43,997 bases of DNA from a virus (IMGVR_UViG_2778261068_000003:1-43997), one strand, 5' to 3'. Counted from the first letter of the stretch, positions 816 through 28,497 are shown. A program made the numbers and translations. The notes: generated by a model not told the origin, from the sequence alone.

Positions 816-1085
816 AATGACGCCCTCTGGTGGTTTCTAAATAACTCACCACCGACGACGCCAATCGTCTGGTGGTGAACTGTGCAGGGTTGGCGTAACC
901 GGGAAACCAACCGGCGCACCTTTCGGTGCCCCCACACAGCCCACCATAATTCAGATGTGCGTGCGCATACGACAATAAAAAACACGCTCGCGGCGTGTGT
1001 CTGTCGCGGTTTCTATCCGGGACGCCAATCCCGACGCCAGATTTTGCTGGCGTGCGCAGACTATAATCCCGGACGGTTATTTTTG

Positions 1086-4963: not shown

Positions 4964-5079
4964 TTTGTTTTAACCTCATTACAGATTTAAGGATGAACAA
5001 ATCCCTGCCATTGCTGACATAAATTTATGTTGAATATTTTTATCTGATAAAAATATTGTGTTGATTCAGGCGCTGATAC

Positions 5080-5319
5080 TCACCATGATTCTGCTTTTAC
5101 AGGCAAGCCATCACGACCGAGAAATATTTTGATCATATAATCGCTGATACATTTTTGCTCACCAACACTTCTGATATATAACCTGTGTCTGCATATATCG
5201 TTTGCAGAGGCGATATATGTTTGCCCTTTATGAATAACATAATCGCCGGGGGTGACGCACTGACGTGGTATTTCATCGGTTCCGAAATGGTGTGCGATCA
5301 TAATTATCTCCATTTTCAC
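5080..5319 (-). CDS. hypothetical early-left protein
   Basis: 79-aa ORF on the early-left strand downstream of the exonuclease gene; no motif recognised. Confidence 0.35.
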
Positions 5320-5779
5320 AAATGAATTTTGTCGATGCGGTGCCTGGTGCCTCCAGGTGACGTTAACCAGTTAACAATTAACGCCGGATACAGAGAACCC
5401 ACCCATAAGAACCAATACGGAAGTCAACTGGCCTTTTTAACTGTTCCGCGTGCGCTGAGCCGCATTCACCGCATCACAAAATTCACTTTAAAAAGGGCGG
5501 ACATCAGCCAGCAATGAAACTGATGCCGCCAAAAGGTAATCAACATGGGTTGTTGCAGCGGGGTTGTCACTCAGGCGTATGGTCAACCTGACAACCCGGT
5601 GTCCTCAACAGGGGGAAGGAATAACCCCGCCATACGTACCGCCGTGCGCTTTCGCGTTATGCCCTGACTTTTCAGGGATATATCCTTTCAGTAAACTGTC
5701 AGTGCCGGATTCTTATCCGTGTCCGGCGCACGACCACATGTGGCAGCGTGTTGGTCTCCATTTTTAACCCAGAATCTCA

Positions 5780-5977
5780 ATGGAGAATAAAATGTCAGAC
5801 AAGTTAATTAACCCATTTACCTATCCATCTGTTGCAGCTTTGAACTTAACAGTTGAGTTAATTCGGGCTGGCAAAATGTCATCCCCTTCAGAGGCGGCTA
5901 ATTCAGTTATTACAATTTGCAATATATTAAAAGAAGAAAAACAAGCCGCTATGGAGAAGACTGATAAAGAGCAATAA
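5780..5977 (+). CDS. hypothetical small protein (65 aa)
   Basis: ORF with GGAGAA Shine-Dalgarno 5 nt upstream of ATG; opposite in orientation to the surrounding early-left genes; overlaps a possible 53-aa minus-strand ORF. Confidence 0.35.
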   Translation: MENKMSDKLINPFTYPSVAALNLTVELIRAGKMSSPSEAANSVITICNILKEEKQAAMEKTDKEQ

Positions 5978-6248
5978 AGGCTTCTCTGATTTCTTGAGCC
6001 AGTTTTTTAGCTGGCTCTACCTTTTCTGTCTCCCCGTTCAAAATGAGAGATTTCAGTGTTTCTGCGGCGATTTTCTGAGTGTCTGGAGGTAAATCTTTAA
6101 ATTCCATCTTTAACCCCGTTAGTCGATAGATTTTGTCGAACTGGAAAGCGCCTGTTTAAACTCACTGAAGCTGAGAGCTTCTTCGCCTTCGGCAAGGCCT
6201 TCGAAGTATTCTTCGTAAGCCTTTTTCATGATTGCGTCGAAATCCATA

Positions 6249-12118: not shown

Positions 12119-12306
12119 AAACGATTTGCGGGAAAAGGACAGTTAAGTAAAATCGCTGCGGGTGCTTGAGGCTATCTGTCTCAGGCATGAACACCAACGG
12201 CAGATAGATAAAAGCCCCACCCGACTATAAATCGAAGTGAGGCCCCTATATGCTCGACACATATAGATTGCCTCTTACGGACCGAAAGGTCAAGGAGAAG
12301 CAGGCT

Positions 12307-12462
12307 ATGAAGCAGCAAAAGGCGATGTTAATCGCCCTGATCGTCATCTGTATTACCGTCGTAGTGACGGCACTGGTAACGAGGAAAGATCTCTGCGAGG
12401 TACGAATCCGTACCGGACAGACGGAGGTCGCTGTCTTCACAGCTTACGAATCTGAGGAGTAA
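12307..12462 (+). CDS. hok: Hok/Gef-family type I toxin
   Basis: MKQQKAMLIALIVICITVVVTALVTRKDLCEVRIRTGQTEVAVFTAYESEE matches the Hok family pattern; AAGGAG Shine-Dalgarno; an in-frame upstream extension (12250) is mok-like; stem-loop directly after the stop. Confidence 0.85.
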   Translation: MKQQKAMLIALIVICITVVVTALVTRKDLCEVRIRTGQTEVAVFTAYESEE

Positions 12463-23619: not shown

Positions 23620-23832
23620 GTGATGATTTATACACATGAGATGCTTTGCGAAGCGCGTCGGGCGCTGCATGAACTGATGATCGGGCGTGCTGTGGTTTCT
23701 GTCAGTAAGAACGGACGACAGGTGCAGTATTCGCGGGCGACAATTAATGAGCTACGGCGATATATTGAAGAAATTGAAAGTGCGCTTGGAATCTCCGGTC
23801 GTCGCCGTGGCCCTGCAGGAGTAAGACTGTGA
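23620..23832 (+). CDS. head-tail joining protein (lambda gpW-like)
   Basis: ...ARRALHELMIGRAVVSVSKNGRQVQYSRATINELRRYIEEIE...RRRGPAG... resembles lambda gpW. Confidence 0.8.
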   Translation: MMIYTHEMLCEARRALHELMIGRAVVSVSKNGRQVQYSRATINELRRYIEEIESALGISGRRRGPAGVRL

Positions 23833-25418
23833 ACGGGGAACTGGTGGATCTTCATGGGCAACCTCTGCGGCAGAGTATGGGATATTCCGGTGGTGGTACC
23901 GGATTTGGCGGGCAGCTTGCGGAATGGCTGCCAGCACCGGAAAGCGCCGATGTGGCGCTGTTACCCTCCATTCAGCTGGGGAACGCTCGCGCGGATGATC
24001 TGGTCCGTAACAACGGTATTGCCGCAAACGCCGTGGAAATCCATAAGGATCATATTGTCGGGCACATGTTTCGCCTGAGTTACCGGCCAAACTGGCGCTG
24101 GCTGGGGATGTCGGAAGCTGATTCGCATGCCTTTATTGAAGATGTGGAGGCGGCATGGATGGAATATTGCGATCCGGTGTTTGGTTCGATGGATGTGGAA
24201 GGGCGTCGCTCGTTTACCGAATTCATTCGTGAAGGGGTAGGAGTCCATACTTTTAACGGTGAAATTTTTGTCCAGCCCGTATGGGATACGGAATCCACGT
24301 CATTATTCCGGACGAAATTCAAGACCATCAGTCCGAAGCGCGTCAGTACACCTGGTTATGGCATCGGCGATCGTTTTATGCGTGCCGGGGTGGAAATTAA
24401 CCGGCACGGGAAAGCACTGGCTTACCATGTTCAGGAAGATGACTGGCCCGGCTATGGTGTCAGCAACTGGACACGGATTGCGGCGACGCTGCCCTCCGGG
24501 CGACCGGGAATGATCCATGTGTTTCAGCCGCAGGAGGACGGACAGACGCGCGGGGCCAACCAGTTTTATTCCGTGATGGAGCGCCTCAAGATGCTCGACA
24601 CACTGCAGGCCACACAACTGCAGTCGGCGGTGGTGCGGGCGATGTATGCCGCGACGATTGAATCCACACTGGATTCGGAAAAAGCTTTTGAATATATCGC
24701 CGGGGTGGGAGATGGCGGTAAAAATCCCCTGAACACCATCATGGCAGGCTATGCGCGTTATTACGCCACTAATACAGTAAAAATGGGAGGTGTACGTATT
24801 CCGCATCTTTATCCGGGGGATTCACTGAATCTGCAGACACCACAGAATGCGGATAATGGTTTCTCTGAACTGGAAAAGGCGCTGTTACGTTACATTGCTG
24901 CCGGACTGGGGGTGTCCTATGAGCAGCTTTCCCGTGATTATTCACAGGTCAGCTATTCCAGTGCCAGGGCATCCGCCAATGAGTCGTGGCGGTATTTTAT
25001 GGGGAAACGAAAATTTGTGGCCAGCCGTCTGGCGTCACAGATGTTTGCCTGCTGGCTGGAGGAAGCGCTTATTCGCGGCGTGGTCCGCCCGCCGAAATCC
25101 CGTTTCTCATTCTGGGAGGCCCGTTCCGGATGGTGTCGTGCCGAGTGGATTGGTGCCGGTCGCATGGCGATTGACGGACTCAAGGAGGTTCAGGAGTCCG
25201 TAATGCGTATTGAATCCGGTCTGAGTACCTACGAGAAAGAGCTGGCGATGATGGGGGATGATTATCAGGAAATTTTCCGGCAACAGGTGAGAGAGTCGGA
25301 AGAGCGCAGAAATGCAGGATTGTCACGACCAGTCTGGATCGCAGATACATATCGCCAACAAATAGAGAAAAGTCGGGAGTCGGGAGAAAACGGGGGGAAT
25401 GCACAACGTGAGACGTAA
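23829..25418 (+). CDS. portal protein (lambda gpB-like)
   Basis: 529 aa at the position and with the general character of lambda gpB; GTG start overlapping the W-like stop. Confidence 0.9.
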   Translation: MNGELVDLHGQPLRQSMGYSGGGTGFGGQLAEWLPAPESADVALLPSIQLGNARADDLVRNNGIAANAVEIHKDHIVGHMFRLSYRPNWRWLGMSEADSHAFIEDVEAAWMEYCDPVFGSMDVEGRRSFTEFIREGVGVHTFNGEIFVQPVWDTESTSLFRTKFKTISPKRVSTPGYGIGDRFMRAGVEINRHGKALAYHVQEDDWPGYGVSNWTRIAATLPSGRPGMIHVFQPQEDGQTRGANQFYSVMERLKMLDTLQATQLQSAVVRAMYAATIESTLDSEKAFEYIAGVGDGGKNPLNTIMAGYARYYATNTVKMGGVRIPHLYPGDSLNLQTPQNADNGFSELEKALLRYIAAGLGVSYEQLSRDYSQVSYSSARASANESWRYFMGKRKFVASRLASQMFACWLEEALIRGVVRPPKSRFSFWEARSGWCRAEWIGAGRMAIDGLKEVQESVMRIESGLSTYEKELAMMGDDYQEIFRQQVRESEERRNAGLSRPVWIADTYRQQIEKSRESGENGGNAQRET

Positions 25419-27024
25419 CCTTTCACATATTGCCGCCATGGCATTTAATGAACCACTTTTACTGGAGCCCGCCTATGCGCGGGTTTTCTTTTGCGCACTG
25501 GGCAAGGAGATGGGAGCAGGCAGCCTTGCTGTTCCGCAGCAGGCTGTTCAGCTTGATGCTGATGGTATGCAACTGGCGGTGACTGACTATATGTCCGGAG
25601 GTCAGCGACCGGCAAAGAGCTACCAGGTGAAGAATGGCATTGCCATTCTTCCGGTGAGCGGCACGCTTGTTCATAAACTGGGTTCCCTGCGACCTTATTC
25701 CGGCATGACTGGCTATGACGGCCTGACTGCCCGTCTTCAGATGGCGGTCGATGATCCGGATGTGCGCGGCATTTTGCTGGATATCGACAGTCCCGGTGGG
25801 CAGGCTGCCGGGGCTTTTGACTGTGCTGACATGATTTACCGCCTGCGTGAACAAAAACCCGTCTGGGCGCTGTGTAATGATATGGCCTGTTCAGCCGCCA
25901 TGTTGCTGGTGGCAGCCTGTACGCGTCGGCTGGTCACGCAGACGGCAAAAATTGGCTCGATTGGTGTGATGATGGCGCATACCAGTTATGAGAAACAACT
26001 GGCGCAGGAAGGCGTGGATATTACGCTGATTTACTCCGGGCAGCATAAGGTTGATGGCAACAGTATTCAGGCGTTACCGGCTGGCGTGCGTGCGGATTTT
26101 CAGCGCCGTATTGATGAGGCCCGCCGGATGTTTGTTGACAAGGTGGCACTTTATACGGGGCTGAGTTCTGAGACGGTGATGAATACCGAAGCCGCCGTTT
26201 ATGACGGTCAGGCAGGCATTGATACAGGCCTGGCTGATCAAATGATTAATGCTGCAGATGCCGTTGATGTGATGGTTTCCGCACTGAATAATTCTGTTAC
26301 AAAGGAGAATGCAATGAGCGTTAAAAATCTTACCGTTGCTGAAGCCGTGGCTCAGGAAAATCAGCGTGTGATGGGGATCCTGAATTGTCAGGAGGCGAAA
26401 GGACGCGAACAACTGGCGCAGATGCTGGCAGGGCAACCGGGAATGTCTGTTGAGCAGGCGAAAACGTTGCTTGCAGCAGCGCCGGTTGCTGGTACTGACA
26501 GCACGGGAGATCAGATTATGGCGCTGCCGGAAGCAAAGGGGCGTGAACAACTGGCGCAGGTGCTGGCAGGTCAGCCGGGAATGACTGTGGAGCAGGCGAA
26601 AGCGTTTCTGGCGGCAGCTCCTGTAGCCAGTGTTGCAGGCACAGGCGATCAGATTATGGCACTGCCGGAAGCAAAAGGGCGTGAACAGTTGGCTCAGGTG
26701 CTGGCAGGCCAGCCGGGAATGACAGTGGAGAAAGCGAAAGTGTTTCTGGCGGCAGCTCCTGTAGCCAGTGTTGCAGGCACGGGCGATCAGATTATGGCGC
26801 TGCCGGAGGCGAAAGGGCGCGAGCAGCTGGCACAGGCGCTGGCAGAACAACCGGGAATGACGGTGGAGCAGGCAAAAACGTTGCTGGCAGCCGCACCGAC
26901 GGCATCACAACCGTCACAGGAAACACTTTTTGATCGCTTTATGGCACAGCATGCAGCAGGTGCGGTTTCCGGTGGCGGAGCAGCCGGACACAGTGAAGAA
27001 AAGCTGCTGCTGAGTATGCCGTAA
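25399..27024 (+). CDS. capsid assembly protease / scaffold (lambda gpC-like, S49 peptidase) with expanded C-terminal repeats
   Basis: N-terminus ...NLSHIAAMAFNEPLLLEPAYARVFFCAL... and protease core co-linear with lambda gpC; C-terminus carries four ~46-aa repeats. Confidence 0.9.
   Translation: MHNVRRNLSHIAAMAFNEPLLLEPAYARVFFCALGKEMGAGSLAVPQQAVQLDADGMQLAVTDYMSGGQRPAKSYQVKNGIAILPVSGTLVHKLGSLRPYSGMTGYDGLTARLQMAVDDPDVRGILLDIDSPGGQAAGAFDCADMIYRLREQKPVWALCNDMACSAAMLLVAACTRRLVTQTAKIGSIGVMMAHTSYEKQLAQEGVDITLIYSGQHKVDGNSIQALPAGVRADFQRRIDEARRMFVDKVALYTGLSSETVMNTEAAVYDGQAGIDTGLADQMINAADAVDVMVSALNNSVTKENAMSVKNLTVAEAVAQENQRVMGILNCQEAKGREQLAQMLAGQPGMSVEQAKTLLAAAPVAGTDSTGDQIMALPEAKGREQLAQVLAGQPGMTVEQAKAFLAAAPVASVAGTGDQIMALPEAKGREQLAQVLAGQPGMTVEKAKVFLAAAPVASVAGTGDQIMALPEAKGREQLAQALAEQPGMTVEQAKTLLAAAPTASQPSQETLFDRFMAQHAAGAVSGGGAAGHSEEKLLLSMP
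26314..27024 (+). CDS. putative nested scaffolding protein (Nu3-like), same frame as gpC
   Basis: In-frame internal ATG at 26314 preceded by AAGGAG at 26302..26307, at the position where lambda Nu3 initiates within C. Confidence 0.45.
   Translation: MSVKNLTVAEAVAQENQRVMGILNCQEAKGREQLAQMLAGQPGMSVEQAKTLLAAAPVAGTDSTGDQIMALPEAKGREQLAQVLAGQPGMTVEQAKAFLAAAPVASVAGTGDQIMALPEAKGREQLAQVLAGQPGMTVEKAKVFLAAAPVASVAGTGDQIMALPEAKGREQLAQALAEQPGMTVEQAKTLLAAAPTASQPSQETLFDRFMAQHAAGAVSGGGAAGHSEEKLLLSMP
26393..26890 (+). repeat. in-frame 138-bp tandem repeats (~3.6 copies) within the gpC/scaffold coding region
   Basis: Near-identical DNA units encoding EAKGREQLAQVLAGQPGMTVEQAKAFLAAAPVASVAGTGDQIMALP. Confidence 0.85.
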
Positions 27025-27063
27025 GCGGTATCCGGTATTCCGATAAATCAGGAGACTGAAAAA

Positions 27064-27399
27064 ATGATTAAAACCATCACGGAAAAGCGCGCAGATGTGC
27101 ACATTTTTGCCGGAAGCGATCCGGCCTATACCGCAATTGCCAGCAGTGGTATCAGTGCCGCCACGCCTGCGCTTACGCCACTGATGCTGGATGATACTAC
27201 CGGAAAACTGGTTGTATGGGATGGTCAGAAAGCCGGAACGGCAGTGGGGGTACTGGCACTGGCTCTTGCCGGGACAGAGCCCACGCTGACGTATTACAAA
27301 AGCGGTACTTTTGCCACTGAATCGCTGGTCTGGCCTGACTCGGTGGATGCGGTGAAAAAAGCCAACGCATTTGTGGGAAGTGCCATCAGCCATGCCTGA
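27064..27399 (+). CDS. head decoration protein (lambda gpD-like)
   Basis: ...SDPAYTAIASSGISAATPALTPLMLDDTTGKLVVWDG...TLTYYKSGTF... is co-linear with lambda gpD. Confidence 0.9.
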   Translation: MIKTITEKRADVHIFAGSDPAYTAIASSGISAATPALTPLMLDDTTGKLVVWDGQKAGTAVGVLALALAGTEPTLTYYKSGTFATESLVWPDSVDAVKKANAFVGSAISHA

Positions 27400-27468
27400 T
27401 GGTGAAGTGATTAACTGAAAAAACGGGTCGCGGTGCGGCCCGTTTGTGTTTCTGAAGGAAAATAAATT

Positions 27469-28497
27469 ATGGGTTTATTTACCACGCGTCAGTTACTCGG
27501 GTACACCGAGCAGAAAGTGAAATTCCGTGCACTGTTTCTTGAGTTGTTCTTTCGTCGCACGATCACTTTCCATACTCAGGAAGTGATGCTGGATAAAATT
27601 ACCGGCAAAACACCGGTTGCGGCGTATGTCTCTCCGGTGGTGTCGGGTAAAGTACTGCGCAGCCGCGGTGGTGAAACCCGCGTGTTACGTCCCGGCTATG
27701 TAAAGCCCAAACACCGCTTTGATTATCAGCAGGCGGTGGAACGTCTTCCGGGGGAAGATCCAGCCCGCCTTAATGACCCGGCTTACCGCCGCCTGCGTAT
27801 TCTGACGGACAATCTGAAACAGGAAGAGCAGGCGATCGTGCAGGTGGAAGAAATGCAGGCAGTCAGCGCCGTTCTGCAGGGTAAATACACCATGAGTGGC
27901 GAGCAGTTTGAGACGGTGGAAGTGGACTTTGGGCGTTCTGCTGCTAATAACATCACTCAGGCGGGGGGTAATGAGTGGTCAAAACAGAATGCTGACACTT
28001 TTGATCCGACTCATGATCTGGATGCGTACTGTGATTTTGCTTCCGGTACCATCGATATTGCGATTATGGATGGTACGGTCTGGCGTATGCTGAACGGTTT
28101 TAAACTGTTCCGTGAAAAACTGGACACCCGCCGTGGTTCCAAATCTGAGCTGGAGACCGCACTGAAAGACCTGGGCTCCGCGGTATCCTTTAAAGGTTAT
28201 TATGGCGATCTGGCTATTGTTGTGGCGAAAACAGCTTATGTCGACGAAAACGGGGATGAACAGCGTTATCTGCCGGAAGGTACACTGATTCTGGGAAATA
28301 CCCAGGCGGAGGGGGTCCGTTGTTATGGGGCCATTCAGGATAACCAGGCGCTGAGTGAGGGGATCACCTCTGCAATTCGTTATCCGAAACACTGGCTGGA
28401 AGTGGGTGATCCTGGTTGCGAATATACCATGACGCAATCTGCGCCGTTGATGGTGTTGCCGGATCCGGATGTATTTGTGGTGGTTCAGGTGAAATAA
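27469..28497 (+). CDS. major capsid protein (lambda gpE-like)
   Basis: ...YVSPVVSGKVLRSRGG...PGYVKPKH...VQVEEMQAVSAVLQGKYTMSGE...KLDTRRGSKSELETALKDLG... is co-linear with lambda gpE. Confidence 0.95.
   Translation: MGLFTTRQLLGYTEQKVKFRALFLELFFRRTITFHTQEVMLDKITGKTPVAAYVSPVVSGKVLRSRGGETRVLRPGYVKPKHRFDYQQAVERLPGEDPARLNDPAYRRLRILTDNLKQEEQAIVQVEEMQAVSAVLQGKYTMSGEQFETVEVDFGRSAANNITQAGGNEWSKQNADTFDPTHDLDAYCDFASGTIDIAIMDGTVWRMLNGFKLFREKLDTRRGSKSELETALKDLGSAVSFKGYYGDLAIVVAKTAYVDENGDEQRYLPEGTLILGNTQAEGVRCYGAIQDNQALSEGITSAIRYPKHWLEVGDPGCEYTMTQSAPLMVLPDPDVFVVVQVK

Follow-up and report, generated by a model that had tools for sequence, protein, structure and literature searches.

An old, long-maintained four-copy module array in the scaffold part of a lambda gpC/Nu3-type head protease gene

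Within a 43,997-nucleotide stretch of viral DNA (IMGVR_UViG_2778261068_000003:1-43997, referred to here in its entirety as the window), a gene for a prohead protease and scaffold of the lambda gpC/Nu3 type carries a tandem array of 138-base-pair (bp) units, and the region that holds the array is the C-terminal scaffolding part of that gene. The array is old and every one of its units is maintained at the protein level, the DNA identity between the units having been mostly eroded by synonymous drift. The reading that we favour, at a probability of roughly 0.6, is that four old copies of a module of about 38 residues, present in the protease and in a scaffold made from a nested start, provide multivalent docking within the procapsid and change in number by occasional recombination. 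The features on which the argument draws are given below; ORF denotes an open reading frame, and E423 the homologous locus of Escherichia coli E423.

25399..27024, + strand: gpC-like prohead protease/scaffold gene, 541 residues from the ATG at 25399 (ORF listing)
25843..26277, + strand: S49 (SppA-type) peptidase domain, residues 149-293 (Pfam)
26302..26307, + strand: Shine-Dalgarno sequence AAGGAG, 6 nucleotides before the nested ATG
26314..27024, + strand: putative nested, in-frame, Nu3-like scaffold ORF of 236 residues from Met306, predicted from the sequence
26335..26391, + strand: long first helix of module 1 (..AEAVAQENQRVMGILNCQ), from the AlphaFold2 helix and the unit alignments
26392..26529, + strand: repeat unit 1, EAKGREQLAQMLAGQPGMSVEQAKTLLAAAP followed by the linker VAGTDSTGDQIMALP; 91% DNA identity to E423 unit 1
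26530..26667, + strand: repeat unit 2; 91% DNA identity to E423 unit 2
26668..26805, + strand: repeat unit 3; 92% DNA identity to unit 2 of the same array and 78% to E423 unit 3
26806..26898, + strand: repeat unit 4, a 31-residue core only; 94% DNA identity to E423 unit 4
26926..27021, + strand: conserved scaffold C-terminal tail (LFDRFMAQH ... LLLSMP), from alignment

The array and the age of its units

Tandem Repeats Finder, applied to positions 25000-28000, returned one array only, at 26391-26888, with a period of 138 bp and 3.6 copies (85% matches, 0% indels, score 658). It lies in frame within the 541-residue ORF, and its 46-residue units begin at 26392, 26530, 26668 and 26806. The array described in the first-pass annotation, which had been made from the sequence alone, is thus borne out in its period, coordinates and copy number, and unit 2 is identical to the 46-residue block that was quoted there. 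The description of the units as nearly identical was too strong, as the in-register DNA identity is 80% between units 1 and 2, 78% between units 1 and 3, 92% between units 2 and 3, and only 59-64% against unit 4, which corresponds to 27, 31, 11 and 50-56 differences per 138 positions, respectively. The differences between units are found mainly at third codon positions. Units 1-3 terminate in ...GDQIMALP; unit 4 has in common with them only the 31-residue core (EAKGRE...LLAAAP), after which the linker is replaced and a unique C-terminal sequence follows.

Estimates by the method of Nei and Gojobori put the synonymous divergence between units (dS) at 0.30 for units 2 and 3 and at 0.73-1.25 for the other pairs, with a ratio of nonsynonymous to synonymous divergence (dN/dS) of 0.06-0.12, and together these values point to old duplications, each of which has been kept by purifying selection. 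Exact in-register DNA matches extend to at most 39 bp between units 2 and 3 and to 11-21 bp in the other five pairs. Units 1, 2 and 4 are orthologous, position by position, to the units of E423 (identities as listed above); unit 3 is nearest to unit 2 of its own array and not to unit 3 of E423, so that a later duplication or conversion of unit 2 has taken place in this lineage. The signature of the array is not that of a recently expanded, slippage-prone repeat, and change in copy number appears to be occasional, not frequent. It had been proposed that the number of copies could change by slipped-strand or RecA-mediated recombination, and part of this proposal stands, in that the number differs from one to five among relatives and does so by whole, in-frame units; the part that presupposes near-identical, slippage-prone DNA does not. 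Shifts in copy number would come from exchange between units, through unequal homologous recombination or gene conversion, and not from frequent slippage.

The gene, its nested start and the module

The gpC-like gene sits between the portal gene and the genes for gpD-type and gpE-type proteins, as in lambda, and these neighbours were assigned by Pfam as follows.

23829-25418: portal protein, lambda family (Phage_portal_2)
27064-27399: gpD-type decoration protein (HDPD)
27469-28497: gpE-type major capsid protein (Phage_cap_E)

The peptidase domain occupies residues 149-293, in the N-terminal two thirds of the protein, where Pfam Peptidase_S49 (PF01343) matches at E=1.1e-31 with 110 bits against a cut-off of 24.9; the matches of the NCBIfam SppA models to the same protein fall under the cut-offs of those models. 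Ser165 (CSAA) and Lys217 (HKVDGN), which do not vary across an alignment of 34 homologues, line up with NCSAG and SHKVDGN of lambda, and, from what is generally known of S49 peptidases and of lambda gpC, we take these two residues to be the expected catalytic dyad. Among the PHROG families, PHROG 53 ('head maturation protease') corresponds to the N-terminal 305 residues. The C-terminal 236 residues, which make up the nested ORF, are matched in four separate stretches each by families of three kinds: head maturation protease, head scaffolding (PHROG 8399, 'head scaffolding protein') and capsid assembly (PHROG 8940, 'capsid assembly protein'). Of the database proteins, the nearest is an S49 peptidase of Escherichia albertii (P0003, 538 residues), which is 99% identical and has the same four units, and the E. 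coli relatives of the gene have a DNA identity of only 83-90%. A megablast search against phage genomes found the repeat region covered by no phage record, the best match being phage 21 at 74% in the protease part.

The beginning of the gene is ambiguous between the ATG at 25399, which directly follows a run of G, and a GTG at 25408 (VRRNLSH...). Homologues are annotated from the equivalent of the GTG, which gives 538 residues, and gene 5 of phage 21 is annotated in the same way; both candidate starts lie ahead of 25418, where the portal gene ends, so that the two genes overlap in either case.

Lambda itself resembles the window in its S49 part, which is about 61% identical over the first 300 residues, in its gene order (portal, C/Nu3, D, E), and in having the same module, a similar C-terminal tail and a strong Shine-Dalgarno sequence before an internal Met309. 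It differs in that a single module follows a low-complexity linker of about 50 residues, so that the earlier statement that lambda has the segment once, in a gpC of 439 residues against 541 here, was correct.

The in-frame AAGGAG-ATG at 26314, which had been put forward as a nested Nu3-like start, is well supported by sequence comparison. Met306 is conserved across the homologues inspected and falls at the position where gene 6 of phage 21, the Nu3 homologue of that phage, is annotated to start, with a ribosome-binding site before it, and the homologous Met309 of lambda is preceded by AGGAGG. RefSeq places the start of lambda nu3 at codon 239 of C (L008, NC_001416, 833-1438), with only a distant GGGAG upstream, and at the equivalent of codon 239 the window has Ile and no start. 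In view of the Shine-Dalgarno sequence before the Met309-type site and of this Ile, the conserved nested start of the family appears to be of the Met309 type and not at codon 239. The array would be part of both the full-length protease and the nested 236-residue Nu3-like scaffold that begins at ATG 26314.

Each unit is made up of a module of about 38 residues and a variable linker of about 8 residues that is rich in Ala, Gly, Ser and Thr. The consensus of the module, drawn from diverse units, is ..[DE]xI[ML]xLxEAKGRExLAxxLAxxPGMTVExAKxxLAAAP. No model in Pfam or NCBIfam covers the module, a sequence search of the PDB with the 236-residue scaffold part returned nothing below E=0.9, and no solved structural relative of the module was found. 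AlphaFold2, given a 78-sequence alignment of units, modelled unit 1 (residues 311-366) with a predicted local distance difference test score (pLDDT) of 91.3 and a predicted template modelling score (pTM) of 0.72. In the model a long helix is followed, after a short turn at EAK, by two more helices, and the three would form a small bundle. The first helix of module 1 was predicted both in the full-length model (residues 313-328) and in that of the unit (3-18), and the internal units retain just its last turns (DQIMALP). The full-length model was too poor overall to be used as it stood (pLDDT 49.8); its units score 70-80 and its linkers below 50, a pattern in keeping with discrete modules joined by flexible linkers, and each module is predicted to fold independently, giving the array the look of beads on a string. 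All 34 aligned sequences have Phe511, Phe514, Met515 and Pro541 in the C-terminal tail, and the full-length model has helices there, at low confidence, at 508-518 and 532-538.

Copy number among relatives and the procapsid

The counting of repeats across homologues that the first-pass annotation had proposed as a check was carried out with a hidden Markov model of the unit, and copies ranged from one to five. The 120 listed homologues comprised one protein with one copy, two with two, 75 with three, 39 with four and three with five, although three of these counts come from aberrant, rearranged proteins (P0044, P0051 and P0120). The three-copy group is chiefly from Salmonella, with some members from E. 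coli and Cronobacter; the four-copy group comes from E. coli, E. albertii, E. marmotae, Citrobacter and Salmonella. When the unit profile was searched against 1.84 billion cluster representatives, 936 proteins (that is, protein clusters at 50% identity) were matched at E<=1e-3. Among the best 150 of these 936 representatives, 136 have one copy, 10 have two and three have three, and an S49 domain stands alongside the module in at least 65. The others are short and consist of nested-ORF calls, fragments and chimeras, together with a few distant proteins that stand alone and have two modules. A single module is therefore the usual state, in lambda as well, and it is the enterobacterial relatives that have 2-5. 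A scan of genome contigs gave five loci, none of them close, and was uninformative for copy-number counts.

Where close relatives differ by one unit (proteins 89-97% identical), the indel is always whole and in frame. P0031 (four units, 470 member sequences) and P0038 (three units, 196 members) are 97.2% identical except for one 46-residue gap; P0015 compared with P0001 has a 40-residue insertion, and P0047 compared with P0118 a 49-residue gap. In P0041 and P0039 the units are almost identical to each other, from which it follows that duplication or homogenisation is ongoing in the family. Within E. coli, a C-terminal region of the window type is present in 105 of 5,426 complete genomes (about 2%), where the four-copy allele is labelled merely 'S49 family peptidase'. 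Of the 107 matching E. coli records, 60 rows were inspected, and nearly all of them run gap-free and in one piece over the 861-bp query; this end-to-end match means that those genomes have four copies.

Four proteins in the homologue set, P0044 (657 residues), P0051 (743), P0120 (551) and P0043 (610), contain partial internal duplications or a fusion. The duplications restart in the protease domain or in the middle of a unit, and the fusion bears the source name 'phage baseplate assembly protein V'; all four look like rearrangements or misassemblies and not clean gains of units, and they inflate naive copy counts. Three distant proteins, P0139 (198 residues), P0192 (194) and P0220 (223), stand alone without S49 and have two modules 20-60 residues apart, a sequence arrangement which suggests that the module was duplicated independently in proteins that do not belong to the enterobacterial gpC/Nu3 lineage.

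An expansion or collapse of the repeat in the source assembly, which had been named as the finding that could overturn the observation, is scarcely credible. Apart from the four rearranged proteins just mentioned it has no support, the 11-31 differences per 138 positions among units 1-3 and the 50-56 against unit 4 allow each unit to be placed uniquely, the 99%-identical E. albertii protein has the same four units, and nearly all of the inspected rows from the roughly 105 complete E. coli genomes have the same length.

The suggestion that copy number might tune the size of the capsid is contradicted by the capsid proteins themselves. A three-unit locus (L009) encodes a 342-residue major capsid protein that is 97.4% identical to that of the window and 97.7% identical to that of E423, both of which have four units, and a near-identical shell protein that occurs with three modules or with four leaves capsid-size tuning unsupported. 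The portals of the three- and four-unit loci compared are 93-97% identical. At greater distance, phage 21 pairs three diverged units with a capsid protein whose sequenced part has 85% identity to that of the window, and lambda pairs one unit with a gpE (341 residues) that is 59% identical. The P0031/P0038 pair was unusable for the capsid comparison, since no gpE-type gene follows D at the P0031 locus, and the window and E423 served as its four-unit side.

Two observations on these loci may be added. In the P0031 locus (L010) the gene after D is not of the gpE type (25% identity) and the locus ends soon afterwards. In E. coli E423 (L002, NZ_CM173464.1) an ISApl1-family, IS30-like transposase gene is found at 5014-5988, between the D and E genes, so this prophage copy is probably defective.

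An account in which the array is a recently expanded, unstable repeat, its length variants arising by slippage or through RecA and tuning either stoichiometry or capsid size, is improbable on this evidence. It can appeal to the one to five copies of the relatives and to one-unit indels between 97%-identical proteins, to the 39-bp exact stretch that units 2 and 3 have in common, and to P0041 and P0039, whose near-identical units are a sign that recent duplication or homogenisation does occur in the family; yet the DNA of units 1-3 of the window is only 78-92% identical, with dS of 0.3-1.25 and exact matches of at most 21 bp in five of the six pairs, the E. coli rows are nearly all of one length, and the 97.4-97.7% identity of the 342-residue capsid proteins across three- and four-unit loci argues that capsid size is not the tuned variable. 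An even poorer candidate is tolerated filler, whereby the extra modules are neutral length variation in a scaffold that is degraded after assembly. Lambda manages with one module, and one to five copies persist beside very similar capsid proteins, but a dN/dS of 0.06-0.12 at near-saturated synonymous divergence means that each copy has long been kept as protein, and the indels always comprise whole in-frame units.

Under the docking reading, each module would dock inside the assembling procapsid, the candidate partners being the shell of gpE-type protein, the portal and further scaffold molecules. With four modules, scaffold and protease would become multivalent, with higher avidity or a bridging of several subunits as the outcome and with capsid geometry unchanged. 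Lambda Nu3 is reported to interact with B (the portal), with C, with Nu3 itself and with E, the last of these being a whole-protein two-hybrid result (PMC3224144). It is unlikely, though not to the degree of the accounts above, that the modules are instead units of self-association or portal recruitment, whose extra copies strengthen oligomerisation or an initiator composed of portal, protease and scaffold. The self-association of lambda Nu3 and its requirement for incorporation of the portal (PMC3224144) speak for such a role, as do the company of S49 in at least 65 of the best 150 representatives and the conservation of the portal among three- and four-unit loci; against it, neither activity has been mapped to the module, the interaction of Nu3 with E is also on record (PMC3224144), and head genes are co-inherited, so that co-occurrence cannot separate the partners.

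Several points weigh against docking by the modules. The partner of the module is putative, and the interactions of lambda Nu3 are not mapped to the module segment. The invariant residues of the module (I, EAxGR, L, A, A, L) may have been conserved for structural reasons alone. By analogy, the conserved tail (LFDRFM...SMP) could be the true capsid-docking element, as C-terminal ends dock to the capsid in other scaffolds and prohead proteases. The beads-on-a-string picture takes its evidence only from weak linker confidence in the poor full-length model, and Medina et al. are said to have described lambda Nu3, in 2011, as largely disordered. A bolder reading, which we regard as less likely than not, is that the module is an uncharacterised, independently folding three-helix domain, that it is through this domain that lambda-type scaffolds and prohead proteases actually dock, and that the one- to five-copy alleles are a valency series that sets the number of scaffold molecules per T=7 procapsid or the tightness with which scaffold and protease are held.

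Precedents, other features of the window and meaning

The repetition of the module is not new. The GenBank record of phage 21 (M81255) annotates three repeat regions in gene 6, 'Tri1 box', 'Tri box' and 'Tri3 box', with the function 'unknown; putative', and these translate as the same module (EAKGREQLATMLAGQQGMSVEQARAILAAA, EANGREQLAATLAAMPEMTVEKARPILAAS and EAKGAEAQAEQLAACPGMTVESARAVLAAG) and align with the units of the window, so that module repetition in Nu3 homologues was already on record. Genes 5 and 6 of phage 21 and the gene in the window are the same gene, with a tandem in-frame module at the same site downstream of the nested start, and both have an EAKGREQLAxxLAxxxGM[ST]VExAR..LAA module, a DQIMAL-[DP]-EAKG junction and a homologous nested Met. 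Phage 21 has three copies with an irregular spacing of about 141-150 bp and a core DNA identity between units of 59-67%, whereas the window has four copies with an exact period of 138 bp and a core DNA identity of 76-90%. Full-text literature searching turned up no account of the Tri boxes and no mapping of domains within Nu3. The array is thus an ordinary four-copy variant of the phage 21-type repeat class, which is common in enterobacterial prophages.

More remote parallels may be drawn with other scaffolds. Those of the P22, 80-alpha and phi29 type have a C-terminal helix-turn-helix domain that binds the coat protein, and by analogy they would resemble the present case, since in both a scaffold that later leaves the procapsid bears a small helical element close to its C-terminus. 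The module was found to match this coat-binding domain neither in sequence nor in fold; it is predicted to be a bundle of three helices, where the domain is a hairpin of two, and it occurs in repeats joined to a protease. Gram-positive surface proteins, too, have tandem binding modules that are three-helix bundles (protein A domains, Embp/Ebh and GA modules), and these are among the closest known systems.

One further ORF overlaps the array.

26074..26850, - strand: antisense ORF of 258 residues, judged non-coding (ORF listing)

It had been described as a spurious creation of the repeats. The ORF does exist, but it is not specifically created by them, since the codon-aligned antisense frame is free of stops for 241 codons in the single-copy C gene of lambda and for only 191 in E423, whose homologue used in this comparison is 89-90% identical. 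The long run in lambda together with the shorter one in E423 marks the antisense ORF as a by-product of a codon composition rich in Ala, Gln, Gly and Leu. A coding role was rejected, the frame being neither conserved nor repeat-specific.

The window contains ten Chi sites (GCTGGTGG), where 1.67 would be expected and none of 100 shuffles reached ten; they are located at 1249, 10448, 12085, 13383, 13973, 14025, 15568, 18794, 23397 and 25905, eight of them on the + strand. This count would place the element among the Chi-rich lambdoid prophages, a class that is treated in PMC12315714. The last of the ten falls within gene C, some 480 bp upstream of where the array begins. Chi as a driver of recombination between the repeats was considered and rejected, there being no site inside the array.

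Elsewhere in the window, Rfam models matched above their gathering scores for the sok antitoxin RNA (105 bits), the C4 antisense RNA (72.5), the Hfq-binding small RNA isrK (78.9) and the c4 a1/b1 target element (51.9), the matches being situated at 12160-12309 (+) and at 868-951, 977-1053 and 1014-1066 (-). These sequence matches suggest a prophage with a hok/sok-type module and with an immunity or antirepressor region of the C4/isrK type.

What remains of interest is a widespread, uncharacterised small domain that would merit a domain-family entry, as none at present covers it. Should the modules not dock, the array would be a case of ordinary domain-repeat evolution in a well-known phage gene. 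If they do dock, the natural alleles, with one module in lambda, three in phage 21 and in Salmonella prophages, four in the type found in the window and, rarely, five, would give genetic access to a step of lambda head assembly that is poorly understood, and could tell which part of Nu3/gpC contacts the shell or the portal and how the valency of the scaffold relates to its copy number.

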